A DNA stretch of 63,593 nucleotides, counting the filler, from Klebsormidium nitens (Eukaryota > Plantae > Klebsormidiophyceae): the NCBI GenBank assembly GCA_000708835.1. It is 4 parts of 4 records of this genome, joined end to end, with 100 filler letters (N's around TTAATTAATTAA, not from the genome) between each part and the next. Parts side by side here need not be neighbours in the genome. Positions count along the whole stretch, not along the records: positions 1 to 31,082 come from DF237778.1; 3 more parts are not named here. One strand, given 5' to 3'. The number at the start of each line of letters is the position of its first letter. Position 1 is the stretch's first letter. The notes below the pieces were generated by a model, which was given only the letters and a program-made list of their open reading frames with translations, did no database searches and was not told the origin of the DNA. Below, piece by piece: positions 4,306 through 32,122 of the stretch. Position numbers and translations under genes: made by a program.

Positions 4306-4306
4306 C

Positions 4307-5773: not shown

Positions 5774-5806
5774 AATCTCTAGGCAGTACAGGACGACTTC
5801 CTAGAG
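5764..5806 (+). promoter_or_regulatory. -1 programmed ribosomal frameshift signal (G GAT TTT, 6-nt spacer, stem-loop)
   Basis: Pol frame is -1 to gag and is closed upstream by TAA at 5761-5763. Slippery heptamer at 5764-5770; stem CTCTAGG(5777-5783) pairs with CCTAGAG(5800-5806). Confidence 0.8.
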
Positions 5807-11511: not shown

Positions 11512-11945
11512 CAGGTACAGAGCCAAGACAGTTGTGGCTCCCCGCGACACCTCGAGATAAGTCGGATCTCTTGGTTACCTCGTGTAGTTCAAAAACTGTT
11601 TCTGTTCTGTTCTGACTTCTGAACTGGTCTCAAATACGTGACATGTCAATAGCTGACATTCTGATGCAATTTCTGCAAATCTGAAAATGATACCACTGTG
11701 ACGATCGGGGTCCTTACCACTGGACCACGGAGCCAAAAGGCATTTCTGAATCTCTGAAATTTCTGAATTGATTAAAGTCTTCTTTAGTCTCTACTGCTTG
11801 AGTTAGAGCAATTTGAGCTCTTCTCGGGACTCTGAATAGAGCCACGGCGTGTTTCGTCGAGGGGCTCGTCTTTCTGTTCTCTGAATTCTGTTACAAAATC
11901 CCCAGTATCTGAGTGTTGAGCTGCTGGGGTGTAAGTCTGGAGCAC

Positions 11946-12597
11946 TGTAACGTTTGGAGTTCGGTTAAGACTAACCATCCATCCGTTAACAAATATGCCA
12001 ATCTAACTCGGCATAGCTCAAGTCTGATGTGACTCAATAACAGGCATTTAATTGTCTTAGAGTCCTCATCATTGGGTTGTCACTGTCGGCGTAAAAGTCG
12101 AGGACAAGCCCATGTGTCTGAATGATGAATGGCATGTATACATACTCTGTATGGTGCCAAGTCGTAGTGCAAGTCATGACATGTATGCATGTTTGACCAA
12201 TGAATGCGTGCTTAAGCCTGCTACATGGTATGCAGCATGCTAGAGGGTGCACGTTGCACTACTACGGTCTGAACCTGATGTTGACTGTGTAAACCAGTGC
12301 ATAGCTTATTGACGTTGACTAGAGGTATGCATTAGGGCAGTCTGCGGACAGCCCTAAGTAAGACTGATACTCTAAGATTCGCCATGAGGCGTACTGCCTG
12401 GGAAGACAGAAGACTGAAGGATTGTGAAGCGGGGATCATTCATTCGAATTCCCAACCAGCAACACAATTCCTACGAACTCAGGGAAGATCGTTTCTGAAG
12501 AGCCGCACCCTCGAACTGCAAGCATATCTGTGAAGGCATCCATGATTCCGCCATGGCTGCCCTGACGTGAGAGCGAACTAGCACGTCCAACATTACA
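11946..12597 (+). repeat. 3' LTR
   Basis: 652-bp direct repeat of the 5' LTR, followed by the TSD ACATA. Confidence 0.96.
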
Positions 12598-13063
12598 ACA
12601 TATCTATTAGTGGAGAAAGGCAAGAGATCTTGATTGCTGCTGTCAGTGCGCAGTGCGATGACGCACCTGCCCCTTGCCGCCGGCGGTGCCAAAGGCCAAA
12701 GGGATTGAAGCAGGAGGAGCAGCCTGCTCGCGAGGTTCCGCGAGGCCGGCGCTTCAGCGCTGCTGACCAGAAAGCAAAGCAGCAGGATGCGCCGGTACTC
12801 GAAGAAGCTCTGAATTGCGCTGCGGAACGTGGTGAGCAAAAGGCGGATTGTTTGCTTCTTCAGATGCCAACACTTAAGTTCAGGGGATCTTTGATTGCTG
12901 GCCCTGCAAGCAAGTGTATCAAAGCTCATTCTCTTTTCATTTTCAACAAACAGTAGGACATCAGTGCCATCAAACATACCACGGTTTCAAGAAAAGAGTG
13001 TTCTTTGGAACTTTAGAACAGTGGGTCGATGATCCTTCATGAAATGACCAGCAGATTTTCAGT

Positions 13064-13495
13064 GGCATGGCTAGGCGTGCGTTGGGAAGTGTACCAAGAT
13101 TTTGCCATTCTTTCTAAAGATACTAATGGGCCATTTCTTGGTACAGCGCGAGAAGTTGGTGGCATGGCTGGATCTGCGTTGAAATTGTACCAGGTTTGAC
13201 CACATAAGAATGGCATTGATGGCATGGCTGGGCATGCGTAGGGAAGGTACCAAGTCCTGACCACTTCTTTTTCAACATAACAATGGCACCAAGAGTTGAT
13301 GGCATGCCTGGGCGAGGCAGGGAAGTGAACCAAGTTCTGACCCATTCTTTCTCGAGATGATCATGGATCACTTCTTGGTACAACGCCAAAAACTGATGGC
13401 ATGTCTGGGAAGTGTACCAACTTTTGGCCAATTATATGTTAAGATAACAATAGGTCATTTCTTGGTACAGGGCCAGAAGTTGATGGCGTGGCCGG
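13064..13495 (+). repeat. Diverged tandem array (~5 units) of the GTACCA...TGGTAC family, intronic
   Basis: GGCATG(G/C/T)CT flanks at 13064, 13161, 13221, 13301 and 13398; cores at 13091, 13187, 13247, ~13326 and 13413. Confidence 0.8.
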
Positions 13496-14158
13496 TCTTG
13501 CAGGCAGGTGTGTGCGATAGGAATGATGGCCATGATTCTCTTCGCCTTCGTCTCTTTTCTAGACCTCATGCCTTTCATTGCCGTGAGTGCGACACGCCCG
13601 CAGGATTCAGGCTTCGTGGGGGCAAGTACGGAGGGAATGTCAGATACTATTGCGAGCGCCACGGCCCTACAAAGGGTTGTTTCCAGATCGACAAGGACCG
13701 TGCAGGTAAGAGGAGACACACACACCTTGCTTCAAGTTGTGTGCAGCAATCAGCAACTCGACCTTAATCACAAGTGCAGGTCTTTGCATGGCTGTGCACA
13801 GCCCCCGCAAACTTGCCCTTATCGTGCCCTTTCTTCATTGCAGCATGGGTTCAGGGGCGCGAGAAGACGGGAAGGAAGGCGAACCCTGCCTGTCCTGAAC
13901 GCGAGCAGCATCTGAAGGGGTCCGGATCACCTGCTGCACGTCGGTCAGGGACAGCAACAGCAGGTGAGCGCCCAGAATTTTAAAGGGGAATAGAATTCGG
14001 CACTGTGCCAAGCCAGCTGTCACACTCTTTAGCTCGCAATCACAGAAGATGGTTCCAAGTCGCGCAAAAACCGGAGGGGTTTCAAGCGGCGCCCCAAAAG
14101 CACTGTACCAAGGAAAAGCGTTTTGTGGTGCTTCAACCCCGCTTCTCATCGAGAACGT

Positions 14159-14260
14159 GTACCAGGAACGACCTATTACTTCTTAAGAATCCTAATGGGC
14201 GTTCTTAAGAATCCTAATGGGCGTTTTTGGTACGCAAATGTCGCCGGGTATGGCCGGACA
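14159..14260 (+). repeat. Single palindromic unit with an internal 22-bp tandem duplication, intronic
   Basis: TTCTTAAGAATCCTAATGGGCG at 14180-14201 and 14202-14223. Confidence 0.88.
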
Positions 14261-14724
14261 GATTGCATGCTCTTGTATAGCCGCACGATTTGGAGGACTA
14301 CTGCAGGTTCCCTGGTAGTCAATTGTGACGTCCTAAGTGCGGCAATTCTGACCCATTGAGCGCCTCCTTTTCAGAGTCCGTGTGCGCTGACCGCGGCGCC
14401 CGCCACAGCCCCCCCACAACCGCCCCCCCTGCGGCCGCCAGCGACTCTGAGTCGGACTGCGGTCTTGGCGCAGCCTGCCATCAGCACGCTGCCAGTGACG
14501 AGGCGCAGCCCGGGCAGCCTCCCGTCCACCGCGCAGAGGGCCTGTGCGCGCTTTCAAGCGGGAGCGCCAGGTTTGGGGTTCAGCCCACTGTCATGAAGAG
14601 CGTGCTGGTGAGGAGCGCATTCCAAGGTAAGCGACGAACCCCTCCTTTCATCGACGATCCCATGCGTGTCCTCTCCTGACAGATTTTGGCGGTTTCTTCT
14701 CGAACATCAAAAGTCCGCTCAGAT

Positions 14725-15240
14725 TCTGGTACATCTTGGCAGGTACGGCCGGGGCCCCTCAAAAACGGTGCGATGCTTTGCAGGGTGCGGGGGTGTGTAC
14801 CAAGAAAGGCTGTATTACTTCTTAAGAATCTAATGAGCGTTTTCTGGTACATCCTGCGGGGTATGGCCGGCTTTGCCCATCAAGCGCATGATCCGACCAT
14901 CCAGCACACAATCAGCGCGTACCAAGAACGATGTATTACTTTTTAAAGAATCTAATGGGCCTTTTCTGGTACATCCTGCGGGGTATGGCCGGGGCCCCAT
15001 CAAGCGTGATTCCAGCCATCCTGCGCACAATCAGGATGTACCAGGAAACGCTGTATTACTTTCTTAAGAATCTAATGGGCCTTTTCTGGTACATCCTGCA
15101 GGGTATGGCCGGCCTTGCCCTTCAAGCGCATGATCCGACCATCCAGCGCACATTCCGAGTGTACCAGAAAACGCTGTATTACTTTCTTAAGAATCTAACG
15201 GGCGTTTTCTGGTACATCCTTCAGGGTATGGCCGGGCCCC
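14725..15240 (+). repeat. Tandem array of ~120-bp units with a 55-bp palindromic core (4 full units and 1 half unit), intronic
   Basis: Cores at 14797, 14919, 15038 and 15161. Core 15161-15215 has a perfect 14-bp inverted repeat GTACCAGAAAACGC/GCGTTTTCTGGTAC around TTCTTAAGAA. Confidence 0.93.
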
Positions 15241-15622
15241 CCAATATGGTGCGAGCCTTTGCCGCACCGCAAGCGCCAAGTGTTTACTTTGTAAGATTTC
15301 GAATGTCTGCAGGACCACTGGAATCGTGGCAGGACTCTCAACTCGCCCGGCCCTTCAGGCTTACCCCCCAACATTATGCTCGTGCAGGATCTCCGACCTA
15401 CGAGTGCGGGTCGGAGAAGGTCTTTTACTCCTCAGCACCAAAGAGCAGGGCGCTGATAGGTACGATGGCAGATCTCTGGCATTTGTTGGCAAGAATAGGC
15501 TTCCGTCGGCTTTGTGGATACGACAGTGAATGCACGAGTCTAGCTTGAAGGGCTTGCCATTCTGAGGACGATTGATTGAGGGATCCCTTCGGTGCGTTGC
15601 AGCGACACAACTGAAAATCGGG

Positions 15623-15646
15623 GGCGTGGAAAGCAACCCGGGGCCA
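15623..15646 (+). other. 2A/StopGo-like peptide motif GVESNPGP
   Basis: In frame in exon 15603-15712; spliced context RRLCGYDTTQLKIGGVESNPG|P. Confidence 0.7.
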
Positions 15647-16159
15647 ACACAGGATCCCGACGCCCCGAGCAGCTCGTCCGGACGGCCCCCGATTCCGATT
15701 ACGACTGCGGAGGTGAGCAGTTTGTCAGGCAGAATCGTTCAGAATTGTTCCTGCCTCCTGCCTCCTGCCTCCCTTTCCGCACCCCCAAGGTTTTCGTGAC
15801 CTTTCACACCGTGATCTGTAGCATTGGCAGAGCGACCAAGTGATCAATGATGATGAGTAAATGTCCAATCCATGTCATGCAGGAGGTCCAGGAGAGCGTC
15901 AGGCCGAAGCCAATCAGCACCGAGGCATTTGATGCGTGGCGAGCAAGCGTGAGTCTCCGCCGCTGTCCGACGTGTGCGAGACGTTGTCATCGAGCACGCT
16001 CATCCATATGCGCCCATGCACGGTGAGCGCTTGCATATGGAAAGAGTCGATTGGTTGATTTCTAACTCTTGCGTGCGCCTCTCTCATTCAGCGACCAAAT
16101 CCAAACTGGGTGGCAGAGGCGATGGCACTCTACTCAATACAAGCGGGTCAACCGCAGGG

Positions 16160-16558
16160 TCAAGAGCCGCCCAGTGAGCCAAGCGCCGCCGGGGAGGTGA
16201 GTGTCCTACATTCCTCAACTGCTGCGCGGCAGATGCGCTTGGAAAGCTCGCCTTTGAACTCCTCAAATCTGCCCACTTCACTGTCCAGAAACTCGTCGAA
16301 GAATCCGATAACATCGTCGCTCGACCAGGCGTCGAACCCCCCCGCTTGCATGAACCATCGAAACAGCCACGGCCAGGATAGATCCCTCGGGTCGTTGCAT
16401 GTGCCCCTCCTGCAGAGGCGCGTGATTGCATATGCGGCTGCATCCTGGAAGCTCTCTGCTGCCCTCAGAGTGTCTCGATCGATCATGGCGCCGAGCGCAA
16501 AGACGTCCTTCACCTGCTCGGCGGTCCTGACCGCACTCCAATTGTAGTACCATTCCAT
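16160..16558 (-). CDS. Hypothetical 132-aa protein nested antisense in an intron
   Basis: Intronless ORF with CAAAC-ATG start context, lying mostly in intron 16197-16625; globular-looking composition; no family recognised. Confidence 0.55.
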   Translation of the reverse strand: MEWYYNWSAVRTAEQVKDVFALGAMIDRDTLRAAESFQDAAAYAITRLCRRGTCNDPRDLSWPWLFRWFMQAGGFDAWSSDDVIGFFDEFLDSEVGRFEEFKGELSKRICRAAVEECRTLTSPAALGSLGGS

Positions 16559-16695
16559 GTTTGAAGTTGCCTTCTCTACGTGTCATCTGCCCCTAAGCCC
16601 CTTGCCTGAACTCCATGTCGTGCAGGAGACGGGCCCCTCCTCCAGCAACCCGCATTCTGCCAGCCAACCTCGCTCCGCTGCTGCAGAGCCGGCAC

Positions 16696-17160
16696 CTACG
16701 GTGAGCCCATTCGTGCAGCCAGAGGCATCTTGACGAGGATCCTGTTGCCTTCGACAGTGATCGAACCCTTGTCGCCCCGGTTAGCGCCCTTCCAATTGAC
16801 GGTCCCGCTCAGCTGCACTCCCCATACGGCAAAAAAGTGGGAGATGAGGTACTCGAGCCAGCTTACATAATTGTAGAGCTTCTCCCCTTTGTCCCAAACA
16901 AGGGCGCGCTTGTTGGGTGATACCGTCCACTGGCAATAGTAGGAGGGGTAGTTTTCGTATTTGTTGAACCACTCGCCAATATAACACGGCTTGAATATCT
17001 CCCGCTCGATCGTGACTGGGCGCTTCTCGAAAACTGCGTAAGGTAGCTCGAGGTCCTCCTGGTGGCGGTGGTCGTGCACGGCTTCCAGATTTGCGCTCTC
17101 CTCGGCAGTCAGGGGGCGGGAAAGGGCAAAGCGGCCGGTGAACCTTGTGTCGTAGCCCAT
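16696..17160 (-). CDS. Phage/bacterial-type conserved hypothetical protein (MGYxTxFxG...WDxGEKxYNYVxWLEYLI family), nested antisense in an intron
   Basis: 154-aa intronless ORF; the pattern MGYDTRFTGRFALSRPL...YCQW...WDKGEKLYNYVSWLEYLISHF...G.V.W.G resembles a phage hypothetical family recalled from memory. Confidence 0.75.
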   Translation of the reverse strand: MGYDTRFTGRFALSRPLTAEESANLEAVHDHRHQEDLELPYAVFEKRPVTIEREIFKPCYIGEWFNKYENYPSYYCQWTVSPNKRALVWDKGEKLYNYVSWLEYLISHFFAVWGVQLSGTVNWKGANRGDKGSITVEGNRILVKMPLAARMGSP

Positions 17161-17358
17161 GATCCAATGCCCTTCTGAGTGCCAAAGCGTTTGCCTAAGT
17201 CTGTGTGATACCGTTCTATCGGTCGAGGTCGCCTCGTCTGTGCGCCCTTTGTCCTTAACTCCTCACACTCAAGATTGCGATCTTGCAGGACCCGCGCCCC
17301 TCCTCCCACCCCCCGGATCCTACTAGCCAACCTCGCTCCACCCCTACACAGCCAGCAC

Positions 17359-17844
17359 CTACGGTGAGTCGAACAATGCCTCGATGCGGAATGCCTCGAT
17401 CGGATCCATCTTGACGACAATCCGGTCGCCATCGACCGTAATTGACCCCGTGTCGCCCAAACGATTGCCCTCCAATGTGACGGTGCCGCTCAGCTGTACT
17501 CCCCATACCGCAAAGAAATGAGAGATGAGGTACTCGAGCCAGCTTACATAATTGTAGAACTTCTCCCCTTTGTCCCAGACAAGAGCGCGCTAATTGCGTG
17601 AGACAGTCCAACGGCAGTCGAAGGAGGGGAATTCCTTGAAGATGTGGAATCCCTCCCCACAGTAGTTGCGCTTGACTCCCTTCCGCACGATCTTGACTGG
17701 GCGCTCTTGACTGGGAGCCGCAGAGGGTAGCTCTAGGCTATCCTGAGGGCGGTAGTCGTGCACAGCCTTCAGAATCGCGCTCTCTTCGGCGGTCAGGGGG
17801 CGAGAAAAGGCGAAGCGGCCGGTGAATTTCGTGTCAAAGCACAT
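17359..17844 (-). pseudogene. Tandem paralog of 16696-17160 with a premature stop and frameshift
   Basis: MCFDTKFTGRFAFSRPLTAEESAIL...CRWTVSRN* followed by RALVWDKGE and a frame change. Confidence 0.8.
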
Positions 17845-18829
17845 GGTTATAATGGCCTTTGAGCGCCAAGGCGTCCCCCTAAGTACCGGTGACGCCTGCC
17901 CTGAATTGAGCGTGTCCCGATGCTTGGATGCAGGAGGTCGCACGTCGGAAGAGGACCGCCTCGAGCAGGGAGAGCTCCCCGGCGCCCACCGGTACTCGGA
18001 TGCGGACCGGAAGCCCGGACGAAGCGGTGAGCAATCGTGTGCTGTGGCTTTTAGGGAGAAGTGTGCGCGATTGGTGAGAGAGTGAGGGGTATGCCGGGCT
18101 GTTTTGTGCCCTAAAGGCATTCGGCTCTGTCTTCATTGCCCGGCTAAGCACCTTATGCATTTGCCAATCGCAAATTCCCATTGCAGATTCCCATCGCTTT
18201 TGCTGACTGTCAATGAGGAGCAAGCACGGCGGGAGTCCGTTAATCCCTTTGTTGATGTCCCCCTGCAGGAGGCTGCGGCGATGTCTGACGAAGAGGCCGG
18301 CTCCGTCGACATCGAAGAAACGTCAGACGAGACCGAGTCCGACGAAGAGCCCACATCCGAGGATGACCGGGGCGTCGACGACTCGGTGCTGCCGGACGCT
18401 GAAACACGGGATTTGTACCGGCGGATGGAGATGGAGGAAGCGGAAGCTCGGTTCGCGGAGGACGAGACCCCGGACGATGCGCTGGCGCCCATGCGGATGG
18501 AGATGCAGTGGAGGCGGGCCCGGGATGAAGCGCCACAGACCTCTGTGTAAGTAGCTCTTCTTTAAGAGATTGTGGTGAACCTTACAAACTTGGTGGAGGC
18601 TGCAGGTCACCCCCGCTTCTCTTGGGCTGCCTGATGTGCTTCTTGGGCGAATCGTTGTCGAAAATCTGTATCAAGCAGATGGTGCAAAGTGTACATCAAG
18701 TAGCATCCAGGAATTGAGCGTTTCAACAGATCGCTGACACGTGTACATCTTGACTCTCTGATGAACACGCTTGGCGTTCTCTCTTTTTCCAGTATTCGCT
18801 TTGGGGCTGGCCTTACATTCTCCAGTGTA

Positions 18830-19075
18830 AGGCGGGCCGGCCCATCAAATGTTGCAGTGTTTTTGAAATCGCTGAATCATTTCTTATAAAAGTTGGAAGC
18901 TACTCTTGGTACATGCTTAGCGATGCTTTCCTGGTGTACGACAGCCAGTGCCATCAAGCCCATCTAGCAGAACGGGCCTATCAAACTTGTATCTCTCGAA
19001 AGCGACATGTCCCAAGAACCGACGTGTTACTCGTTAGAGAAGTAAAAGGCAGTTTCTTGGTACACCGTGGGGGTA
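18830..19075 (+). repeat. Degenerate copies of the palindromic repeat family, intronic
   Basis: GTCCCAAGAACCGACGTGTTACT...GTTTCTTGGTAC at 19009-19063 and a GGCCGGCCCATCAA flank near 18835. Confidence 0.55.
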
Positions 19076-19186
19076 CGAAAGCCCGCATCTCGCTCATGAG
19101 CACGACAGCATGTTGCAACTCCTGTCCAGGGCTTGGCACCTTTGCGCTGTGGCGTTTGACTTATCAATCTTACATTGCTCATGCAG

Positions 19187-21250
19187 ATTCTCAATGGCGC
19201 ACGAGGATCTTGTGGCAGTGCCTGAGCCAGCGGTGCATTCTGACCCGCTGACTGGCAACGAGGTCTTTAAGAAGGACGGGTTTCGGGTGCTGCGTGTGCG
19301 GGAGCACGAGACCAACTGCTTCCATCAGACGGGGGCCAACCCAACGGGCCGCCTTCCCGGCCCAAAGTTCTTCATGCAGCAGGAGGCGGCGCTCCTAAAC
19401 CACGAGGCGCAGGTGGTCCTGCACAAGTGGTCCGGAAAGGTCGAGAAATTGGTGAGGGTCCCGTGGCGCAGCTTCGCTTCGTACCCCGACTGGGAGACGG
19501 CGCGGTCGCATCTCGAGGGGCGGCACGGGTCAGTGACGGAGATCATCCAGAACGGAAAACCCTGCAAGCCCTACCTTGACCTCGATGGCAAGGACGGGCT
19601 CCCCTTCAAGCGCAAGCCGGTGACCGGGGCGGATGGGGAGGTTGTGGAGGCTGGGGAGAGGTACGGGGGGGAGGAGGTGATCAAGATCGTGGAGGAGTGG
19701 GCCGTTACTGTGTTTAAGGAACAGTACGACCATGAGCTGCAGCCGAGCAGCTTCGTCTGGATCGAGAGCCCCTGCCAGACCAAGTTCAGCCTCCACCTCA
19801 CGATCAATCAGCTGTCCCCCCGTCAGCTCGTCTTTGGCTCCAACACCGAGGGGGCTCTCCACTTTGCGAGGCGCCTCAAGAAGAGGTTGCTCCCGTGGCA
19901 TCCTGCGGTCGCGAATCTCATCGACCTGAACGTGTACACGAAGGACCGCGAGTGGCGGACGCTGGGGAGCGCCAAGATCGAGAAGCCGGAGAGCGTCTTG
20001 TCGTGCATCAATCCGGCCCATTCCTGGAAGGATGCTCTGGTGACCTGGCTGGAGCCCCTCGAGGTGAGCAAGTCATCCAGGCCCCACACCCGCCAGGTCG
20101 GTCACGTCCTGAAGAGTGTACCTGAAAACGGCCTTTTACTTCTCTGAAGAGTTATACGGCCTTTCATGGTACGGGGCAGATTGTGCGTTTGATGGGCTGC
20201 CCGGCCATACTCGCAGGACGTACCAAAAAAGGCCCTTTAGATTCTTCAAGAAGTAATACGTCGTTTCTTGGTACCTAAGTGCTGCTGTTTTTGCGCTTGA
20301 TGGGCTGCCCGGCCATACCCGCAGGACGTACCAGAAAAGGCCCTTTAGATTCTTCAAGAAGTATACGTCGTTTCTTGGTACACAAGTGCTGCTGGTTTTG
20401 CGGCGAGCCTGACCAGTGGTTCCTTGAAGCGCGGCCTTGAGGTTCCTAGAAAGAAGGATCCTGCTTGTGGCGCACTCCTCGTTTCTGATCGCCTCGTCAG
20501 CGTTGATGCTTGGTGGAATCGCTGCATTTGAAGGCGCTCCGCTTTTGCTGCAATCTGTCCTTCTCACGCAACTATTGATTGAAAGATAGTGCAAGTTTTG
20601 TTAGGTCAGAGAATTGACAAACACGAAGTGTCATGGCCTGCTTACCGGCTTCCTCTTCTCATTTAGACGTAGATGATTTGGTACGAATGCTCTCGTAAAC
20701 AGCTGCTCTCGTGCTGTCTGCAGGCTCGTGAGGAGGTCAAGCTGCCATTCGAAGTACCCAAAAGGCTCCACGAGAGGTTCCAAAACCCTCGAGTGATGTC
20801 TGAACGGGGCACGGAGCGCAGCTCACAGAACGACGAGTTTGTCAAGGCGCGCATGCTGACGCTGCTCAGAGAGCGCTTGCACCCTAGCGCCTATGAGGAG
20901 GGCCTCGATCGCTACAACTACAGAGATCGGGCAGAGCCGTGCTACACGGGTCGGATCCACGAGAACCGTCAGAATCTAACCTGCCACCTCAACCCAAACG
21001 GCAAGATCTATGCTCTTTGTTTCAGCCAAAATACCGAGGGCGGGGACTCGGACGTTCCCTGTGTCAAAAGGGCGTTCTGCCTTGGGGACCTGTTCGAGGA
21101 CAACATCTCGTACGAGACTGGCGCGGTCAAGGTAGACATGGAGCACCTGACGCGGGCCCCCGATGCGTCGACCCCTGAGCTCGTGGCTGAAGTAGGGGCG
21201 GGTATGAGGATGCCGAGCGACCTGATGAAGCTGAACACGGTCGCCAACGA
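19187..21250 (+). CDS. PrimPol-type archaeo-eukaryotic primase domain plus UL52-like Zn finger (exons 19187-20063 and 20724-21250)
   Basis: TEII..GKPCKPYLDLD (motif I, DxD); KFSLH (motif II, SxH); IDLNVYTKDREWRTLGSAK (motif III); PCYTGRIH...YALCFSQ...C Zn knuckle. Confidence 0.88.
20117..20381 (-). repeat. Three reverse-oriented palindromic units inside primase intron 20064-20723
   Basis: Cores at 20117 (degenerate), 20220 and 20328, each preceded by CCGGCCATAC..GCAGGAC for the last two. Confidence 0.88.
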
Positions 21251-21459
21251 GTAAGTGTTGTAGCGGAAAGATTAAGTACGTGTCCATTGTGATGCGGGAA
21301 GCTTTCAATTCTTTTGCGCCTGACAAGCTTTTGTTTCGGCCACAAACCCACTTTCTGGCCAGCGTCCTAGGGCTGTTCGCGACCACCGCGATTTCCCACG
21401 GAGTGTGCGCTTCTGTACGCGTACCACACAGTCGTCTTTTGCCGCTTTTGACAATTCTC

Positions 21460-21775
21460 CACATTCTTTTGCCACGTGTCGACCGACCTTCAGATGACCG
21501 CGAGGAGTTTTGCGAGTGCTGGCTGGATTGGGTGCTTCTGTGCGCCCACCTACCGCAAGGGCTTTGTTTTTGCCACATGTCTATGTTTCAGGTTAGTGGC
21601 GGGATTTTCGGCGGGGCTTTCTGCAAGTGTTGGTAGATTGGGCGCTTCTGGACGCCCACTTCCTACGAGGAGCTTTTCTTTTGCCACGTGTCGAAATTTC
21701 AGGTCGCTTGCGGCATCTGCGGGTGCTGATTAGTATGGGCGCTTCTTGGCGCCCACCTATTGCGAGAGTTTCCCC
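21460..21775 (+). repeat. Second intronic tandem repeat family, 3 units of ~100-110 bp
   Basis: TTTTGCCAC(G/A)TGTC at ~21468, ~21567 and ~21678; TGGG(C/T)GCTTCT..CGCCCAC hairpin-like motif in each unit. Confidence 0.72.
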
Positions 21776-22173
21776 CTCAGCCGCAAGTCATGCACAACTT
21801 GACAAAAGTCCTTTTGTCACAGGTCTACACCACGTCCAGATTCTGGCCATCAAGGGGTTGTTTGTTTCTTCTTGGACGCGCACTGAAGCGCGGGGTCCTC
21901 CTTTCGATGCAGACCAATGCTTGCCTATCTGTTACTGTCCACTTTGAGAGCAGCACAAGGAGCCCTACGAGCTTCCGAATTCAGGCCGTACAAGAATACT
22001 TCAAACGCTGACCTACCCTTCTGAGCTGCTTGCAGGTGAAACTCAGCACGAACGAGATTGAGGTCAAGGCATAACCCACAACCGTTAAGAATTTCGGCCT
22101 TCTTCCTGCCTAAGAGTGACTCATTTCAACACATGTCAGGGCGTGTTGATAATCCTCTTGTCCACACTTGCAG

Positions 22174-25100
22174 GTGGATCCAGGGCAAGTTTCCCCTGCT
22201 TGGCATCCGGTCGGGCGTGAACACTGGCAAGACGGTGTTCTGCGGGGCCGTTGGGGATGAGCTTTGCGAGCAAGCGACCGCCCCCTCACGTCGATCATGA
22301 TCACGTACCGAGTGGCCCAGGCTCAAGACCTGAAAGAGCGCTTTCCCCGCACCGCAAACTACCTCGACCTGAAGGCGGACTACGATCACAAGAACGTGTG
22401 GTTCGAGGATCCGAACAACAAGCACATCCTCCTAACGGCCCTCCAGTCCCGAAAGGGCTTTCCCGAAATCGTGGTTCAGGTGGACAGCCTCCTCAACCTC
22501 CGGCGGGGTGGCATTGGCGAGGTTGCCCCGTTCGATCTCGTGATCCTCGACGAGGTGGCAAGCATCCTGGCGCACCTCTCAGCAGCAACTCTAAGGAACG
22601 GCATGGAGACCGGCGAGCTGTTCTTGGAGATTGTGCAGCGGGCAAGCGCGTGTTGGCCATGGACGATGGGTACGGGCAGCGGGAGCACGACTTCTTCCGC
22701 CTCGCAAACGTGCCTGGGAAGCTCATCATCAACAGAAGAAGGGCAGCGGTAGGCACTGAATTGATCGCGCTCTGATCAGTGATGACAGCTTTTGACACAG
22801 TGCGTCTTCCTGTTTGCTGAAGTTCTGGCCGTTTGGAGTCTGGACGCTTGAAAGTGCTTGATGCGGCATGCCTTGCTTTGGCCGCGCCTTGGTTCGCTGA
22901 AGTGGTTAGAAGCAGGATCGAACGGAACAGAAACTTTGGGCCTTTTGCCACGTTCTTTTCTTCTTGAGCGCCTTCAAAGGCAAGTGTGCCTCAGCATGTG
23001 TTGCTCAGATCTTTTTAAAGCACCTCTTGAACTGCTAACAGAGCCCGGCCATACCGTCACCTTTTCTAACGGGAGTTGTGTTTGATAGTGCAGCGTGTTC
23101 GTTCCTAGATTCAAAGACGGGCTTTTTGGTACCCGATGCTCTCTCACGTACATTCAGCCCACAGCGCGCTCATTCTCTGTACCACTTCATGCGCAGGTGC
23201 CTCTGACGTTCCGCGTCGGTCAGGACGAGAAGAAGTGGTTGGATCGAATCGTCGAGGACCTCGCGGCTGGCAAGAACGTGGTCGTCGTCAGCATGTCTGC
23301 GCGAGTCCTGGACCGCATCCGGGACCGGGTGACGTCACACCACTCGCTTGGGCTTGCAGACAGGGACATCCTCATCCATAAGGCCTTGAGCGGGGGCGAA
23401 ACCACGGCTCTCCTGAAGAACGTTGCAGAGAACTGGAAGGTTCGCCTGCTCATGTACAGCCCCACCGTCAAGGCTGGCGTGAACTTTGACGTTCCTTGGT
23501 TCCATACCAAGTTCCTCTACATGTGCCAGAAGAGCACGACGGCTCGGGCAGCCTGGCAGGCGACGCTGCGGGTGCGGAAAACGGAGAGCCCGCTAGTTCA
23601 TTGCTTCGTCTAGTCGTCCATCTCCGTGATGCTCGACTGTGCGCAAGAGATCCCAGCCGCGCGACTCTGCAATCTGGAACAGCAGGTGAGCAGATCGCAT
23701 GCGGCAACTCTTCCAGGTTACTTGCTTGACGTCGAGCAATTAACCGCGCATTGTGCTCAAGCTGCGGAAGCCACTTGGATCTATCTCGTGCTGAAACCTG
23801 CATCTCTCTCCGGTGTGCCATAAGGGATTCAACTTGCTTGTCGTGCAGGGAACGACGGCTATGGCACCGCAGGCTCCGGACGTTGACGACGACCCTGCTT
23901 TGCAGGTATTCACTCTATCTCATCTGTGCGCTTCGTCCCTCCCACTATGCACATTGCTTCCCATCTTGCTTGGGTCGAGCCATGCAACCTCCAGTGGGGC
24001 AGCTCCAGTCTTCCAAGCCTGTGCTCCGAATGCTGCTTGACGGCCCCTGAAAAGTGCTTCATTGCGAAGGTGCTGACAACGCTGCTTGATAGCGAGCCTG
24101 AGACACGTGCTCCACTGCTGGGAAATTGACACGATTGTTCTCCTTTTCACCCGCAGGATGCTGATGGGGACCGCTTGGACCAGCAAGTGGCGGTCGATTC
24201 CCCTCTCAACCGGGCGTCCGATTCTCAGTCTGGGGCGAAGGTCTCCTTGGGCCAACATTTTGAGCAACTCAAGGTGGGAAGTGAAGATCGACGTGCCTGC
24301 CTTAGATTCTGTCCAACTGTCTGGCTTTACATGCGCCTTTGCAAAGCGTACAGTGAGCAAGTTGTTCCTAAGTTCATCCACTGCTCTACAATATTGTGAG
24401 GGCCATTTCAGGGGCCAGTTTCGTTGGTGCGCGTTTGGGGCCAATTTCGTGGGACTCCGTTTAGTGGGCTTGTTTTGTGGGGTCCAAGTGGGGTCCAACC
24501 GGCTTTGGGGCCGGTTCAGAGGCTAGCTTTGTTAAGGGCCACTTTGGGGGGACAGTTCTGTGAGGGCCATTTCGGGAGCTAGTGGGCAACCTCCAAACCT
24601 GATGGAGATAACAACATCTGACTGTGGCAGAGCTGTGCATGAAGATTCACTCAATCTGATGTTCCTATTTGCAGGGATTCTTTGGCCCTCCACGGCGCGT
24701 GACCACGGCGGAGACGCTGCAATTTTTGCAAGCCTGCAACAGCGAAGTGACGGCTGCATGGAGGCGAGTCGCGTCAAGGACCGAGGACCCCGGCAAAGTT
24801 GTCCGGCTGATCGAGGACGGCCCCCTCTTCCGGACGTTTGCGCATACGGAGGCGGAGCGGCGGAACTCAGACGTGCGCCTGCTTCACGAGTTCCAACTGC
24901 AAGTCGCGCGAGCTGGCCACGTGGTGGAGGTTGAAGAACCCAAGGAGCTTTCGAAAAAGAGTAAGAAGCGGAAAGGGCTGGACGCAAAGGCGTTGAAGAT
25001 CATTGGGGCGAGGGCGATCGATGCGGCAGAGTATCAGGAGTTGAGGAGGTTGCGAGACACGAAGAGGGACAGGGGGGCGCAGAGTGTCGAGGTGATGAGG

Positions 25101-25894
25101 TACGAGGCCTGCCAGTACTACGGCCTGAAGGACCTTGACGAGCACTTCTTCAAGGAGACGAAGGCCGAGTACAAGCCCCCGTTCTCAAAGAAGCTCGACT
25201 TTCTGCTGAAGGTGCTACTCGAAGGGGAGTTGCTCGATGAGGGGGGAGTGGCTCGCCAGGGTCACGAGGTCAAGATGGTGGAGACTGCGCGGGGGCTGCT
25301 CAAGGACATGGGTCTGGCGCATGCGTTCGATGTGGGCGGTGAAATCCGCTCGCTACTTGCAGGCGGACTCAAAGACAGGCTCCTGCGATCGGACCTGTTC
25401 AAAGGCCGTCCCATGCAGGTCGGTTCGAAAACCGCGATGTCGGAGCGGCCCGTTTCCGAGATGTTCCAGATTCAGTTGCCAGCGCCCAGAACGGGGAAGG
25501 CTGAACTCGATCCGGTGCAATTGAAGGGGGTGATAAACAGAGTGCTGGAACACATGGGCCTGAAGGTGGGGAAGGGGATCGAGGTGGGCCGCCCGCGACG
25601 AGGGAAGGGGAAGCAGTACGAGTCGGGGTCCGGAAAGAGCACTACAAGTACAAGCTAGATCGGAAGAGCGTTCTCAGGATGGCAAAGCTCGTCAAGCTGC
25701 AGTTCCGTGAAGTCCCTCGTGTTTGGCAGCATCGGGGAGAGCTAGAGCCTGCGGTCAGAGGGTTTCTCAACGAGGTAGATGCGAGCAATCTTGATCATTT
25801 ATTGCGTAGGCCGTCTGGTTACCCTTTGCTAGAGGATCTGAGCTCGCCGGCAGGCAAGGACGATTCTGAGGAATGTATGATTGTGGTTCGTTAG
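22174..25894 (+). pseudogene. UL9-like (origin-binding protein) superfamily-2 helicase and C-terminal domain
   Basis: IRSGVNTGKT (Walker A); ITYRVAQAQDL (Ia); QVDSL; FDLVILDEVASIL (II); VLAMD (III); GKNVVVVSMS (IV); LLMYSPTVKAGVNFD (V); WQATLRVR (VI). Confidence 0.85.
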
Positions 25895-26221
25895 TTAGCA
25901 AGCTAGGGAGTATTCTGGTCGTAATGTATTGAAGTTCTTAAGTGGAATGTGGAGGTTGAATGCGAGTGAGCTTGGCACATAGTTGGCCCGAAATTGCCTA
26001 ATCGGTTCAAGATAACTACGCGCTACATGAAGTATTACTGGACAGTGACCCTTAAGGCATGATGTTTATTACGCCAGCGAGGAGGAAGACAACGAGTCTT
26101 TGACATTGAAGATCAAATGTATTTGATGACTCTGTAATCATAAGATCGGGTCCAAGCAACAACGGCTGCGTGCAATGGTATCTTGTGATTTTTCTTCGTG
26201 AACGGTACGTCAACCGTTTGA

Positions 26222-26779
26222 ATGGATGCGATTCTTGGCTATCGTCCTCAATCGCGCTTCGCAATCATTGAGATGGACAAATCCGTCCTTGAGAGCGCTC
26301 GATCAGCTATTGTACGATCGTACCAAGAGTTTGGCTTGCTAGATACGATATTGGATGCAGCGGCTCTGGCCGGCATGCGAGCTCTTACAGAGCCGTTCGA
26401 CCTTCGTCATATAACCAGACAGCTCGTGCGGTCGCTAATCGCTGAAGGATTCAACGCCTTTTGGGACCAGTCCAATTTGCATGGCCCGTATGCAATAAAG
26501 GTGAGCTGGCGAGCCGCCCTAAATCACGCGTCTCAAGCACGACGTTGGGCATGGAAGTTGCGAATCTCAACGACTTGGACCCATGTTAACGTGCATAAAA
26601 AAGGAGTGTTATCTCCCACGAATTCCATGGAACCAACAGCAATCTCTCCATCATCCTTGTATCGTGCTCCGAGCGTTGTGTGGGACGACACTGAGCCGGT
26701 TTTGGGACTTGAAATGCTTGCAAACCCGTTGAAAGCTCGAATTGCTCACGAAGTCTCCGAAATCATGTCGCCCAGATAA
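26222..26779 (+). CDS. Hypothetical 185-aa protein
   Basis: Intronless ORF just downstream of the helicase gene; no family recognised. Confidence 0.45.
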   Translation: MDAILGYRPQSRFAIIEMDKSVLESARSAIVRSYQEFGLLDTILDAAALAGMRALTEPFDLRHITRQLVRSLIAEGFNAFWDQSNLHGPYAIKVSWRAALNHASQARRWAWKLRISTTWTHVNVHKKGVLSPTNSMEPTAISPSSLYRAPSVVWDDTEPVLGLEMLANPLKARIAHEVSEIMSPR

Positions 26780-27049
26780 CGGGAATGTCCCAAAAGTCTC
26801 CATTTCTCATTTGTGTACATCGCCAGTCACGTTATCCAGCGCCAGTATAATTTCAGCTGAAAATTGAGTGGGCATCTGGCTTTTTAGGCGGCTTTTACAC
26901 GCACTCATAACCGTTTTTACCGTTAAAAGCTGCTACCCATCTCAATTTTGTGCGAACGATTTTGAACGTGCTCGTTCATGTTATCTGGAATTGGAGACTT
27001 TGCTCAAGGTGGTCAAAATTTTCTTGAGAGTATCCAGAAATTGTGAAAG

Positions 27050-27430
27050 ATGCAAGGGTCTGTTGAAATCACGAGACGCATAACCACCGTAACCCAGGGA
27101 GAAAGGCTGCTGCGCTCGGCGTTCGAGGATTGGTACTCGAAAGGACCTGACGATTCAACAATATATGAAGCATGTCGTGCGCTTGTTTCAAGGGTTCAAA
27201 AGACAACGAGACTTCACCTGCTTCGATTGGATCAAGGATGCCGACGGAATCATCAAGTACTTTCAGGAAACATATCCCACTAAGTTGTCGATGCAGGCCA
27301 CTGGGATCAACCCGCTCCTGGTTCTCGTGCGGAAAGCATTCCCCGAGGACAAACAGCTCTATGATGCCTATTACAAGCGGTACAAAGTTGGCACGGTGGC
27401 GATCCTATCGGAGTTGAGGCGAAGCAAAGT
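27050..27430 (+). pseudogene. Frameshifted fragment resembling the N-terminal region of viral tyrosine-recombinase-like proteins
   Basis: FDWIKDADGIIKYFQETYPTKLSMQATGINPLLVLVRK...LYDAYY; frame change near 27190; no catalytic R-H-R-Y residues seen. Confidence 0.3.
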
Positions 27431-27559
27431 CCCTCCGATCGCCGTTGCCCCCGGCCTTTTTCTTGTGCCCCTGCTCGACGCCTCCAGCGGGCGCCTTCTG
27501 GACATTTCTGCCACAGATCGAGGCTCAGCAACGCCCCTCGGCTCGTCAAGGTCGACCAC

Positions 27560-28504
27560 ATGGGCAGCTTCTGGTGCCTGTGCGGTAAGAAGGCGTGTCG
27601 TGACCACGAGGTGGGGTTCCTCGAGGAGACCCGTCTCATGGGCGGTTGGTGGCGAAGTGGGGAGGCCATCTTCACGGCCTTTGACGAGAGCCGGCCGCTT
27701 GTGCGCGAGGTCACGAGCGGCGTGCCTTGGGTGGTTCCCCTGGAACAAGGGGGGTGCGTGGGGGGTGCTCTTTCTGGGCTAGACGCGGAGGCGTGGAAAG
27801 GCGGGCCGCACCTCCGAGTGTTCGTCGTTAGCAACCCTGGAGAGGAACCCGTGGTTTGCGTGCTCTGGGGAGAGAATGCGCATTGCAGCGGCGTCGACTG
27901 CACGGGTTTAGAGCGGTGCCGGCACCTTCTGGGGATGCTCTCAAAGCAAACCTTGCCCCTGATTGATCGCGCAGTTGATGAAGGCGGGAGCCAAGCGACG
28001 CGGACCCTCGCCGAGAGGCGGGCAGAAAGGGTTGAGCAGCGAGAAGCAGGGACGAGAAGGCTCTTGGTCTGCAACGACCCCGCGTGCCGGCGACCCGACT
28101 CGAGAGTTGCGTGCACCCACCAAGAGACCCTCGAGCCTTGGGAGTGCCTCTCTGCGGCGGCGCTCGACATGGGCCACAGCCACAAGAAGATTGACACGGT
28201 CATGAGCCGGGGTGGAGCGAATGTTACGAGTATCTGCGAACGATGGGGCGAAGAAGGCGTGCGGCGACGGGACAAGGCAAAGCGTTCAAGCTCTCGTGGG
28301 CTCGGCCCCTCCTCGAGCGCCCTCTTGACACCGCGCCTCGACGGAGCGGCCGCCTTGGGCTCACGGCAGTACGGGCAGGGGGCGAGATCCCTCCTTTGCA
28401 CGAAGAATTGGTGGCCGCCCTCGCTCGCCTCCTCCCCCGACCGTACCTCCCGAACCTCTTTCGTGCTGGGGAACACTTCGTACTTTGTGAAGAGTTCTTG
28501 CTGA
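27560..28504 (+). CDS. Hypothetical protein with a SWIM-like Cys/His cluster
   Basis: 314-aa ORF with CSGVDCTGLERCRHLL at ~27885-27930. The C-terminal part overlaps the antisense RING ORF. Confidence 0.45.
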   Translation: MGSFWCLCGKKACRDHEVGFLEETRLMGGWWRSGEAIFTAFDESRPLVREVTSGVPWVVPLEQGGCVGGALSGLDAEAWKGGPHLRVFVVSNPGEEPVVCVLWGENAHCSGVDCTGLERCRHLLGMLSKQTLPLIDRAVDEGGSQATRTLAERRAERVEQREAGTRRLLVCNDPACRRPDSRVACTHQETLEPWECLSAAALDMGHSHKKIDTVMSRGGANVTSICERWGEEGVRRRDKAKRSSSRGLGPSSSALLTPRLDGAAALGSRQYGQGARSLLCTKNWWPPSLASSPDRTSRTSFVLGNTSYFVKSSC

Positions 28505-29190
28505 GGAACAGGGCCCCCGGTCGCGCTCGAAAGAAAGGGGCTCCCCTCTTCGTACTGGGCCTCCACGCACCGCAAACACAGGAGGTGGCCCCCTCCACCT
28601 CGGCAGATCAGTGCCCCACCCCGGTTCCGTTTCCGCTCCCATATGGAGGGCTCGCTCCCCCGGGCGTAGACCGCTCCCTTTCCGCCACAGGTGCGCCCGA
28701 TGCATGTTGACCCAAAGCCGCCCCGAGCAAAGGCCCCGGCAGGCCGCAAGCTGAAGGCGAGTCCGTAGTCGATTGCGAAGTCGGCGGCTCCCTGCTTGGC
28801 CGCATAGGAGGGGCGGCCTCCTCGCACGCCCCCAGCATTCGGCAAGGGAGGCACAGCCGCCGGGACGCTCCTGATGTCGCTGAAGACTGGAGCCGGTCCT
28901 TCGAAGTGGACTGCCGCACAACTCCTGACGGCTTGACCGGCTTTCAAGGTCTCGTGAAGGGTCGCCGAGGCCGCAGGGGTGGTCGATGCGATGAGCACGA
29001 CGCCAGAGGATTCTTTTTCGTCACGGGACGCCGTCACGAGATTCATCCTGGCACCGGAGAGAAAGCTTTGAGTTTGAGCCGGGTTCGATGGCCCTAAGTC
29101 CCGGCGACCCTCTTGGGATTGCAAAGGGGGCGACTCTGTTTTGGAAAGAAACGACCGCCTTTCACGACCTCCTTCCGTTATGCGAGCCAT
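28200..29190 (-). CDS. Protein with a RING-like Zn finger (true 3' end uncertain)
   Basis: CIGRTC...LICRGGGGHLLCLRC...CPYCREP in the 5' half of ORF 27307-29190. Confidence 0.55.
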
Positions 29191-29371
29191 GCTTGTAGCT
29201 TGCTGACCACGCTTATTGGCAAAATCTGTACCATAGTGGCAGTACGTGACTCAGTGCTGGCAAAGGACGGCGAGATCTGGCAGCGACCAGAGGCGCAAAG
29301 AACTTATTTTTCCAATGATGGGCCTTTTGGGCAACTCAACGCTCTTCCAGAAACTCTCGTAGACGACTAGT

Positions 29372-30396
29372 CCGGCCATACCTTGCAACTTGCATGTGTA
29401 CCAGAAAAGGATCCGTTATGTTCTAAAGATATAATACAGCGTTTCCTGGTACAGGCCCATTGTGCGTTGGATGGTTGGAAGTCGGGGGGCCGGCCATACC
29501 CTGCAACTTGCATGTGTACCAAAAAAGGACCCATTAGATTCTTTAGATGTAATACAGCGTTTCCTGGTACACGTTCACGACTCCCTCTGAGCTGTGCCTC
29601 GAATGCAAAGCTCACAGCGTTTTGAGGGGCCGGCCATGCCTGCCAGGATGTACCAGAGACCAACCCATTAGATTCTTTAGAAGTAATACAGCGTTTCCTG
29701 GTACAGGCCCATTGTGCACTGGATGGTCGGAAGTTGGGGCCGGCCATACCCTGCAACTTGAAGGTGTACCAGGAAAGACACATTACATTCTTTAGAAGTA
29801 ACACAGCGTTTCTTGGTACACGTTCACGACTCCCTCTGAGAGCTCTGTCTTCTGAATGAAAAAGCTCACACCGTTTGAGGGGCCGGCCATGCCTGCCAGG
29901 ATGTACCAGGAAATGCCCATTAGATTCCGTCCAGTGAGAAATAGTACAGTATCGCTTGCCACGGTACACACGATCGTTCCCTGAGTCGAAAGAATTCTGC
30001 AATATGTCACCGGGTGTCCCGCCGCCAGAAAGCTCCAGCGGCCTCAAACCTTTTGCAGGGCCGGCCATGCCCCGCAAGATGTACCAGAAAACGCCCAATA
30101 GATTCTTAAGAAGTAATACGGCGTTTCTTGATACGGGCTGACTGTGCGCTGAATGGCTGGACTTGCGCTTGCAGAGGGGCTGCAAGCCCCCTGCAAGCCC
30201 GACCATGCCCAGCAAGATGTACCAAAAAAAGCCCATTAGATTCTTAAGAAAGTAATACGCCATTTCTTGGTACATTCAGATTGTGCGCTGGATGGCTGGA
30301 CTTGCGCTTGAGGGGCTGCAAGCCCGGCCATGCCCCGCAAGATGTACCAGAAAGCCCATTAGGTTCTTAAGAAAGTAATACGCCATTTCTTGGTAC
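29372..30396 (-). repeat. 8-unit array of the palindromic repeat family, inverted relative to the left arrays
   Basis: Cores at 29398, 29516, 29650, 29766, 29903, 30081, 30219 and 30344; linker types match the left arrays in reverse complement. Confidence 0.93.
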
Positions 30397-32122
30397 AGCA
30401 CTTCGGCGATCTCATTTTTAGATGGCAAATTTGACCGGTCTTCAGTACGTCATCCAGTTTGGAGGCACCACTGAGGTACCTCACAATTCAAGTTCATGAT
30501 TTATTCTCCAGAAACCATTGAACTGAAGCCAAGAGGGGCTGGTGGGGACCTGGTGGCGTCACTTCAAATGACTTGGAGTCTACGGAATCCTGGTGGCATG
30601 CTACAAGAATCTCTTGGAGTTTGACTGTACCAGAAGACGACCTACTAGTGAAGTCAGTGTTACTCTTTCCACTTGAGTAGTCTACTGCTGCCAGCCAGCC
30701 TTGTAGCACCGTGACTCAATCTCTAAGCTGTGACAGTGACTTCAAAAGTAAACCATCGTCGCATTGCTCACCTCCTGCCAAAAGGAAGACGCGTGCACTT
30801 CCCCCTCCAGCTCGCCCATGCTCGTGGCACCACACAATGCAGGACCAGCTCAGTCCCAGCTCAGTCTGGCAAGCTGCAAGCCAGGCTGCCAGGCTCGATC
30901 GTGACCATACTGACTGCAACTCCGACTCGGCGCGGCGGCGCATAGCTTATGAGATGCAGGGACGTACCGGGCACTTTCTGCACTTTTCAGCCGAATCTTG
31001 GATCGACGGCATTCGGATGCCCCCGGCCCATCGGACGGCTGAGAAAGTTGGGTGGGATCTCAGCCTCGCGCCGCCCCGGCCCNNNNNNNNNNNNNNNNNN
31101 NNNNNNNNNNNNNNNNNNNNNNNNNNTTAATTAATTAANNNNNNNNNNNNNNNNNNNNNNNNNNNNNNNNNNNNNNNNNNNNCCTTGAGGGGGTCAAGGG
31201 TTGCGCCATGCATTAAATGCGAATAATGCAAAGGGGCCAAAATGCATGGACCCCAATAAACGAAGGGTCCAACATGAATAGGCTATGGCCGTGCATAGGC
31301 TATGAGCCTGTGGCGGCGGCGCGATGCGCGCACGCGCGCGCTCAGGACACGCTATGGCAAGGAGCCATTCTGGCGTGACAGGAACGAAAGAAGTTTTTTG
31401 AGCTTGGTTCAAATTGGATCATGGGCCACATTCAAGTAAGTGGTTTTTGCAACTGCCATGAAATCCAAATTTCGACTCTGAAGTTGTGCATAGTAAGTCG
31501 CATATACACCACACAAATCACTGAGTTGCGTGCGCTGTGGATCGAATTGTCATGCCCATATTTTCACCCCATAAGGACAAGGACATGACAATGATTTGTT
31601 TCTTGGGGCCCGGCCGCCCATGCCTTGTGCGAGGGCATCATAATAAGAAGTATTCATGGTCATTTTTTAAGTCAGGGATAGGTGAAATTAGTTGGGAGTA
31701 AAAGCTAGTTGTCGAACCGAACCATTCAATGATTTACCCTACTCCAATCAAACGAGCGCGCGCATGACATAAGTGAACGGACATGTCCAGAATCCTGATA
31801 TGTCGCAGAAAAATCTGTGCACGCTACTGCAACCGGGTACCCTGAAGGCATTGAAGACAAAAGGAAAAGCTGGCTTCTTCTTGAAGCTCTCCTCGCAATA
31901 AGCACAATTGGTCTGCGTCTCGAGCGAAGTTGGCCCGTTCACTCATCACTCACCGCCATGATGGGCAGCGGCCGGGATTGAAACCTCATGTGCAAGCAAC
32001 CGTCCGATGAAAATTGTCTCGCATTTGTGTACATCCTCGACAACGCGAGAACACTTACTGCAGCGACCAGCCTAGTTCAAGACGACTCGCGTGATTCTTC
32101 GCAGGCGCTCCCTTTTGAAACG

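Follow-up and report, generated by a model that had tools for sequence, protein, structure and literature searches.

A fusion of an archaeo-eukaryotic primase (AEP) with a UL9-like superfamily 2 (SF2) helicase is known from mimivirus R8, pF1055L of African swine fever virus (ASFV), ostreid herpesvirus 1, and some Yaraviridae/mriyaviruses (bioRxiv 2024.02.29.582850). The alga Klebsormidium nitens is itself known to hold giant-virus inserts with six capsid genes (PMC5294986). We analyzed a stretch of 63.6 kb of K. nitens DNA (63,593 nucleotides, hereafter the window), made of scaffold pieces separated by runs of N that begin at 31083, 45845, and 61392. The first piece (1-31082) carries a spliced AEP-UL9 gene, which we call the replicase, a set of palindromic units, and part of a tyrosine recombinase gene. 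These likely form one unit, a broken copy of an element of roughly 20 kb or more, and this is likely a mobile element of undescribed make-up. We tentatively favor, with confidence just below an even balance, a virus-derived and host-adapted family of DNA elements that would prime their own replication and integrate by the recombinase. Beneath this reading, we observed the gene anatomy, splicing across the family, 14 gene models on different scaffolds, the fold that close relatives of the recombinase adopt, how the repeats are oriented, and how this copy is damaged.

The window replicase is the K. nitens gene KFL_008290035 (100% identity over the AEP exon). Mapping of the annotated protein and its paralogs gave 19 exons and 18 introns, all GT..AG, with the exons at 12598-25891 plus the start of a split exon 1 at 3558:

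3558-3653, plus strand: first part of replicase exon 1, 72-84% identical to residues 2-32 of the models P0006, P0008, and P0014 (match 3561-3653), with ACG at the start-codon position.
12598-18546, plus strand: rest of exon 1 to exon 12, with a Cys-rich motif, the ESNPG motif (about 15620-15650), and a low-complexity and acidic linker, from the exon map, splice joints, and alignment A1.
19187-21250, plus strand: exons 13-14, the AEP (PrimPol-like) primase domain and a Cys/His segment, an open frame with CKPYLDLD, SLHL, and YTKDRE and a PrimPol match of the family profile.
22174-25891, plus strand: exons 15-19, the UL9-like SF2 helicase and C-terminal domain, from PF02399 and tblastn to P0014.

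The product thus reads, in order, as a Cys-rich and low-complexity N-terminal region, the AEP primase, the UL9-like SF2 helicase, and a C-terminal domain. The window replicase has AEP, Walker A, and Walker B motifs, and the AEP DxD, His, and Arg motifs were found in this copy and most paralogs; across 15 proteins the DxD is kept in 13 and Walker A in 12, the remaining 3 ending upstream of that domain. Pfam PF02399 matches the window helicase in exon 15 (E 1.4e-4) and also 10/13 relatives. In PDB, a profile built from eight intronless relatives matched human PrimPol (E 3.7e-7) as well as the herpes origin-binding protein (E 5e-26). The virus ancestry proposed in a preliminary description of this DNA, made from the sequence alone, is supported by this herpes match, by the intronless virus-like relatives in the tree described below, and by the genes next to such relatives in metagenomes. 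In intron 14, the stretch 21295-21947 holds four copies of a separate 29-bp repeat and lies at single-copy depth in the contigs of read run X1; it is probably an insertion private to the window copy.

The preliminary description also named a 2A peptide. The consensus for 2A ribosome skipping is D(V/I)ExNPG-P, and the window replicase reads GGVESNPGP. The Asp is replaced by Gly, Ala, or similar in 9/9 copies and the final Pro occurs in only 3/9, so a canonical 2A peptide was rejected. ESNPG itself is conserved in both K. nitens subfamilies, and a 2A reading of this segment is weak.

Read-derived contigs from four runs (X1, X5, X8, and X11) were mapped on 11500-31082, and X5, X8, and X11 were taken as RNA on the strength of their spliced joints; these spliced contigs come from three runs of three studies. 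Among the 15 joints listed (160 further ones exist), 11 are GT..AG and identical to introns of the model, which supports the splice model first proposed, and all 11 occur in X5, X8, or X11 and none in X1. Introns 1, 12, 13, and 14 were seen as approximate joints as well, one joint leaves out exon 10, and introns 9-11 are absent from the joints listed. The X11 contigs differ from the window sequence by up to about 12%; therefore, paralogs splice at the same places, and the common introns and expression across the family support an element family. X5, X8, and X11 cover 26.5-29.1 kb next to nowhere and were not used as evidence on recombinase expression.

The spliced contigs would also suit domestication of the replicase as a family of host proteins for replication or repair, with the repeats as regulatory sites. 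The same holds for the host-like introns, for the GC content at third codon positions (GC3) of 0.76-0.84, and for the long N-terminal extension, about 600 amino acids encoded by exons 1-12, which the intronless relatives lack (alignment A1). However, many annotated K. nitens copies are partial or lack motifs, the window copy is broken in several ways, and virus-type passenger genes are carried in the introns, and we regard domestication as very improbable.

The window copy is dead. Its joined exons contain one-base frame breaks near 13563 (the exon 1/2 join), 22265, 22643, and 25640 and an in-frame TAG at 23611, so that the 19 exons, the 18 GT..AG introns, and the AEP and SF2 motifs of the preliminary gene model stood but its phase consistency did not. 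At 22265, 22643, and 25640 all of the X1 contig depth shows an extra base, and these breaks may be assembly errors or private mutations; the main X5/X8 contigs, about 99% identical to the window, lack the extra base at 22643. The copy is further split by a retrotransposon:

3654-12597, plus strand: Ty3/Gypsy-type long terminal repeat (LTR) retrotransposon in exon 1, a later guest outside the element, with LTRs at 3654-4305 and 11946-12597; the family name comes from reading the sequence.

This 8.9-kb insertion has two 652-bp LTRs with 0 mismatches and a duplicated 5-bp ACATA on both flanks, and it dates the disruption of this copy as very recent. It separates the first 32 codons at 3558-3653 from the rest of exon 1, and X5 and X8 contigs run from this stretch directly into 12598 (loose end corresponding to window 3619-3648). 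Position 12603, previously taken as the left edge of the element, is therefore merely the end of the retrotransposon, and the gene starts at 3558. After the left LTR lies the primer-binding-site-like sequence TGGTATCAGAG, and two assembly gaps fall inside the retrotransposon.

Beyond the window, 14 K. nitens gene models are related to the replicase, each on a scaffold of a different size, and this number is a lower bound; with at least 14 models, the gene is not single copy. Ten fall in the same subfamily as the window copy, with AEP exons that share 59-89% identity with it, and four in a second, distant one (P0049, P0053, P0054, and P0067), in which P0049 retains the motifs (Cys-rich and ESNPG) and the entry for P0053 includes a ubiquitin-like domain. 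Run X1 contributes 1220 contigs to the mapped stretch, 961 of them less than 99% alike, and the summed depth is 73-471 in 26/27 bins from 12806 to 30436, with unique contigs at 11-21; this excess is consistent with the family reading, hints weakly at multiple copies, and gives no copy number. Non-coding cargo also recurs: 3/13 other models carry the same as the window, visible only through mis-predicted exons. One such exon of the paralog P0004 matches the passenger-bearing intron 9 (E 9e-7), the P0014 model takes in the intron-4 repeat flank, and the P0008 model ends in a translated palindrome unit (E 6e-5) downstream of its gene.

The phylogeny was built with FastTree on 45 rows and 667 columns, rooted on L015 and leaving out P0001, P0004, P0006, P0009, P0067, and L012 as fragmentary or mis-predicted. 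Eight K. nitens rows group with P0068 in a single clade (local support 0.996), which speaks for one origin and lies among intronless virus-like relatives; the clade's neighbors are intronless proteins of about 1100 amino acids from metagenomes and chlorophyte assemblies, on long branches. From 84 candidate metagenome stretches, 15 were fetched as loci and 11 annotated. Ten of the 28 open reading frames (ORFs) next to these relatives have Pfam matches (T5orf172, PriCT-2, dCMP deaminase, NPH-I-type helicase, glutaredoxin, U-box, and tail-fibre chaperone), a gene content that we take to be giant-virus-like; no capsid gene was found by Pfam among the 28. The same AEP domain is fused to PriCT-2 in L010:489-3200, L011:523-3858, P0011, P0044, P0051, and P0052, and in P0011 it is apparently joined to another, D5-like helicase, which points to helicase swapping within the primase family.

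Alternatively, these copies might stem from a single entry of a giant-virus AEP-UL9 gene into the Klebsormidium lineage, followed by intron gain and by spread through segmental duplication or as cargo of other transposons; the recombinase piece would then be an unrelated Polinton-like remnant that settled in this repeat-rich region. The giant-virus inserts known in this genome (PMC5294986), the many replicase copies on small scaffolds (8/14 below 60 kb), and a region that gathers insertions, namely the LTR element and the single-copy stretch in intron 14, would all fit, but the catalytic motifs are retained across two deep replicase subfamilies. We consider such passive spread unlikely, and the repeats and the recombinase bear on it further.

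The palindromic unit is an imperfect palindrome of about 57 bp, TGTACCA...TGGTACA, with an AT-rich center, after which come a short spacer and the tail GGYATGGCCGG. Its copies were located by profile and pattern:

13089-15235, plus strand: palindrome-plus-tail units in introns 1, 3, and 4, including an array of four at 14796-15235 with a period of about 123 bp.
19008-19064, plus strand: unit in intron 12, the last plus-strand copy (43 bits).
20117-20382, minus strand: three units in intron 13, the first minus-strand copies.
29372-30397, minus strand: right array of eight units.

A profile scan found 17 copies above 30 bits and 4-5 weak or partial ones, all within 13.1-30.4 kb (20 shuffles scored at most 7.2 bits), in agreement with the some 22 units counted before and with their restriction to this span within the window. 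A stricter pattern gave 16 matches, 7 on the plus strand (13140-15235) and 9 on the minus strand (20201-30348); 100 shuffles gave 0, and the rest of the window had none. To the left of exon 13 every tail is on the plus strand and to its right every tail is on the minus strand, so the units point inward. On folding, 4/7 copies form hairpins with z below -3, better than nearly all shuffles. The units are thus not dispersed through the window, and beyond it one was seen at another copy, P0008; the palindrome profile had no match in loci L001-L015. They are candidate origins and could equally be recombinase or protein-loading sites, and the earlier terms "self-replicating" and "origin-like" are inferences. 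Against passive spread of the replicase, the palindromes extend from its introns to beyond the recombinase and keep a consistent polarity throughout.

The recombinase piece sits between the replicase and the right palindrome array:

27050-27383, plus strand: N-terminal third of a tyrosine recombinase, with a frame break near 27130, ending before the catalytic domain.

It matches the first 111 residues of 351-amino-acid proteins (P0069 at 88% and K. nitens P0078 at 95%, over 84 amino acids). Single-sequence searches with P0069 or A4 gave nothing meaningful in Pfam, NCBIfam, PHROGs, or PDB, and a single-sequence fold of P0069 reached a pLDDT of 38. A profile search of the family then found 1031 representatives, of which 102 were aligned; R189 is kept in 102 rows, K235 in 101, R303 in 101, H329 in 96, and Y338 in 99. 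The profile matches solved integrases (best E 9.5e-7), and 13/102 members match PF00589. The model of a full-length relative has a pLDDT of 95.6 and Cre as its best PDB match (E 1.4e-5), and its best viral structural matches are giant algal virus proteins, with virophage proteins also found. With the R-K-R-H-Y set and a modeled Cre/Int fold, the full-length relatives belong to the tyrosine recombinases. An ATP-grasp suggestion (Atlas) for the 66-amino-acid recombinase piece was ruled out by the solved-integrase profile match and the Cre structural match. The protein resembles OLV11-like recombinases of Polinton-like viruses (PLVs) (PMC4642659), a likeness and not a subfamily assignment. X1 contigs of several identity classes cover the recombinase piece just as they cover the replicase, and were counted as evidence that the two belong together. 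The preliminary description saw no integrase and overlooked this gene, which supplies the integration step missing from its model.

Elsewhere in the genome the recombinase keeps other company. In P0073, P0078, and P0096, a K. nitens-type recombinase is followed by a superfamily 3 (SF3; DUF5906) helicase on scaffolds of 5.7 kb and 12.7 kb, a layout reported for some PLVs (bioRxiv 2025.10.09.676808); possibly this is a second element or the missing part of the window element, and the full element may hold both helicases or two elements may exist. For P0068, a diverged AEP exon (50% to the window), as for P0072, a diverged recombinase (58%), the listing gives two contigs, the longest of 25,623 bp, which suggests a second replicase-recombinase pairing. 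The different partner gene would favor the passive-spread scenario, and the possible second pairing argues against it. In the virophage contig L019 (8799-11453), a recombinase ORF extends into lipase-like and further domains, 884 amino acids in all.

The locus could also be one part of a larger endogenous virus, its arm for replication and integration. That virus might be Polinton-like, mriyavirus-like, or a small relative of giant viruses, and the deletion that cut the recombinase at 27383 would also have removed the capsid module and the SF3 helicase from this copy. The recombinase is indeed cut mid-gene, its relatives precede an SF3 helicase in P0073, P0078, and P0096, and a 24% relative lies in L019 together with major and minor capsid genes. 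Some mriyaviruses of 35-45 kb encode an AEP-UL9-like SF2 fusion and no polymerase (bioRxiv 2024.02.29.582850), and endogenous PLVs often have a primase-helicase and a recombinase (PMC10120064). Yet endogenous PLVs are described as intronless in that paper, whereas the replicase has 18 introns common to diverged copies. Viral contigs yielded no close relative of the replicase, recombinase, passenger gene, or palindrome (queries P0013, A3, P0069, A4, A7, the passenger gene, and the palindrome pattern). Prokaryotic genomes also gave none, two bacterial palindrome-pattern matches being taken as chance, and no close relative of the element was found in phages. We scanned 94 ORFs of the stretches 1-3653 and 12598-31082 against Pfam, and capsid, ATPase, and polymerase families were found in 0/94, a weak argument, since Pfam misses the AEP and the recombinase here too. 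On balance a larger endogenous virus seems rather unlikely, although it is a serious competitor.

Several observations weigh against a single replicase-recombinase element. The recombinase piece in the window has no catalytic residue, and the recombinases of P0073 and P0078, 95-97% identical, precede an SF3 helicase; being paired with that helicase elsewhere, the recombinase may belong to another element. The linkage of P0068 and P0072 rests solely on equal listed sizes of the contigs. An intronless recombinase adjoins an 18-intron gene, and this contrast suggests different ages. No common termini emerged, since the left flank 1501-3653 and the right end 25901-31082 share no match better than E 0.4, and the scaffold stops at 31082. 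The left flank 1-3653 has no palindromes, which is odd for terminal sites, and 3/7 folded copies are no better than shuffles. The main X5/X8 contigs bear a frame change of their own at 24836, so an intact expressed allele is not proven by them. Giant viruses, too, have both core genes, and with the giant-virus inserts known in K. nitens (PMC5294986), a larger endogenous source is possible.

If the replicase, palindromes, and recombinase nonetheless form one virus-derived element, the enzyme classes present would allow the following cycle. The tyrosine recombinase would excise or circularize the element, as its class does. By analogy with herpes UL9, the UL9-like domain would bind the palindromic units and open their AT-rich centers, the fused AEP would lay primers, and a host polymerase, proposed because no replicative polymerase was seen, would extend them. 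The recombinase would then re-insert the copies at other sites.

A bolder version, which we think possible but doubtful, is that these elements are a new class, large capsid-less eukaryotic DNA transposons derived from a giant virus, in which a spliced primase/origin-binding helicase would fire palindromic origins and a Cre-like recombinase would excise and insert the element, still active in Klebsormidium. No description of such an element was found in the main texts of the full-text literature, with most subscription papers outside the coverage and repeat databases not searched. For their replication, the large eukaryotic DNA elements known so far use a protein-primed polymerase, an HUH nuclease, or the machinery of the host; most of those resembling viruses retain a capsid. 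If true, the element would illustrate directly how a giant-virus module turns into a transposon, joining a primase/origin-binding helicase, a tyrosine recombinase, and host-style introns. It would also offer a cultured alga, a relative of land plants, in which the binding targets of giant-virus and mriyavirus AEP-UL9 proteins could be tested, starting from an available candidate site. Should the unit fall apart, what is left is still an unusual, expressed, 14-copy family of intronized viral genes.

The small accessory ORFs of the preliminary description are present:

16163-16558, minus strand: antisense ORF of 132 amino acids in intron 8, no family found.
16702-17160, minus strand: antisense passenger gene of 153 amino acids in intron 9, of a virus-type family (phrog_38666, E 2.5e-21).
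17362-17850, minus strand: second, stop-containing copy of the passenger gene (75% identity over 610 bp).
26222-26776, plus strand: ORF of 185 amino acids, no family found, GC3 0.50.
27560-28300, plus strand: Cys/His-rich ORF after the recombinase break, no family found.
28300-29190, minus strand: Cys-rich ORF converging on the preceding one, no family found.

Exon 9 and its intron are duplicated in tandem, giving the two passenger copies. The ORF at 26222-26776 may not be a gene, and the two Cys-rich ORFs may resemble KDZ/SWIM transposases. Left of the element, a two-exon gene at 243-1604 (plus strand) has no Pfam match and is either a host gene or cargo; we take its product to resemble a Crinkler-type nuclease-fold protein. 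Rfam gave 0 matches in 1-31082. On a different scaffold, a divergent pair of related ORFs at 56972-60635, F-box-like and ARM-like by eye, contains a 107-bp inverted repeat (58924-59030/60099-60205), and the last scaffold piece has a tandem array of a 16/32-bp repeat at 61823-61949.

Among known systems, PLVs of the OLV11-like and Tetraselmis S2x groups share with this locus a replication gene with a tyrosine recombinase, integrated in an algal genome over tens of kilobases (PMC4642659, PMC10120064, bioRxiv 2025.10.09.676808). However, as those sources describe them, they are defined by a major capsid, a minor capsid, and a packaging ATPase, use D5/SF3, SF1, or protein-primed family B polymerase modules, and have no introns. 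Set beside PLVs, Polintons, and virophages, the window has an integrase gene, the truncated one at 27050-27383, and in place of compact intronless genes it has 18 spliceosomal introns. Their core genes (major capsid, minor capsid, and packaging ATPase) were found in 0/94 ORFs by Pfam, which concerns this truncated copy only, and PLV capsids are often too divergent for Pfam. The inserts of nucleocytoplasmic large DNA viruses (NCLDVs) in Klebsormidium are likewise virus-type genes in several diverged copies in the same alga (PMC5294986). Their contigs carry capsid, polymerase, ATPase, and VLTF3 genes, whereas a replicase, a recombinase, and repeats go unmentioned in the available part of that paper. 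NCLDV core genes (capsid, family B polymerase, A32 ATPase, VLTF3, and D5) were matched by Pfam in neither 1-3653 nor 12598-31082.

Helitrons and Replitrons were rejected, with no HUH family among the 94 ORFs by Pfam; this is weak for Replitrons, whose Reps lay outside Pfam when described (PMC10288648). Starships were also rejected, with no DUF3435 among the Pfam matches of the 102 recombinase family members. The Starship captain is a DUF3435 recombinase at the 5' end. Starships and Cryptons both move by a tyrosine recombinase, the former being large and cargo-bearing, and Cryptons have a Crypton-type recombinase as their main gene and short direct terminal repeats. To our knowledge, neither encodes its own primase-helicase, and the best viral structural matches of the window-type recombinase lie in giant viruses.

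Prokaryotic integrative elements follow the same logic, with their own AEP primase and a tyrosine or serine integrase (PMC5862659), but they are bacterial or archaeal, use other AEP families, and lack spliceosomal introns. In mimivirus (R8), ASFV (pF1055L), ostreid herpesvirus 1, and some mriyaviruses, the domains of the protein are ordered as in the window replicase, an intact AEP first and then a UL9-like SF2 helicase (bioRxiv 2024.02.29.582850). Compared with proteins of the R8/pF1055L type, to which it is likened by domain order and not by direct alignment, the window family stands apart in its 18 introns, an extra N-terminal part of about 600 amino acids, at least 14 nuclear copies, and a recombinase as neighbor.

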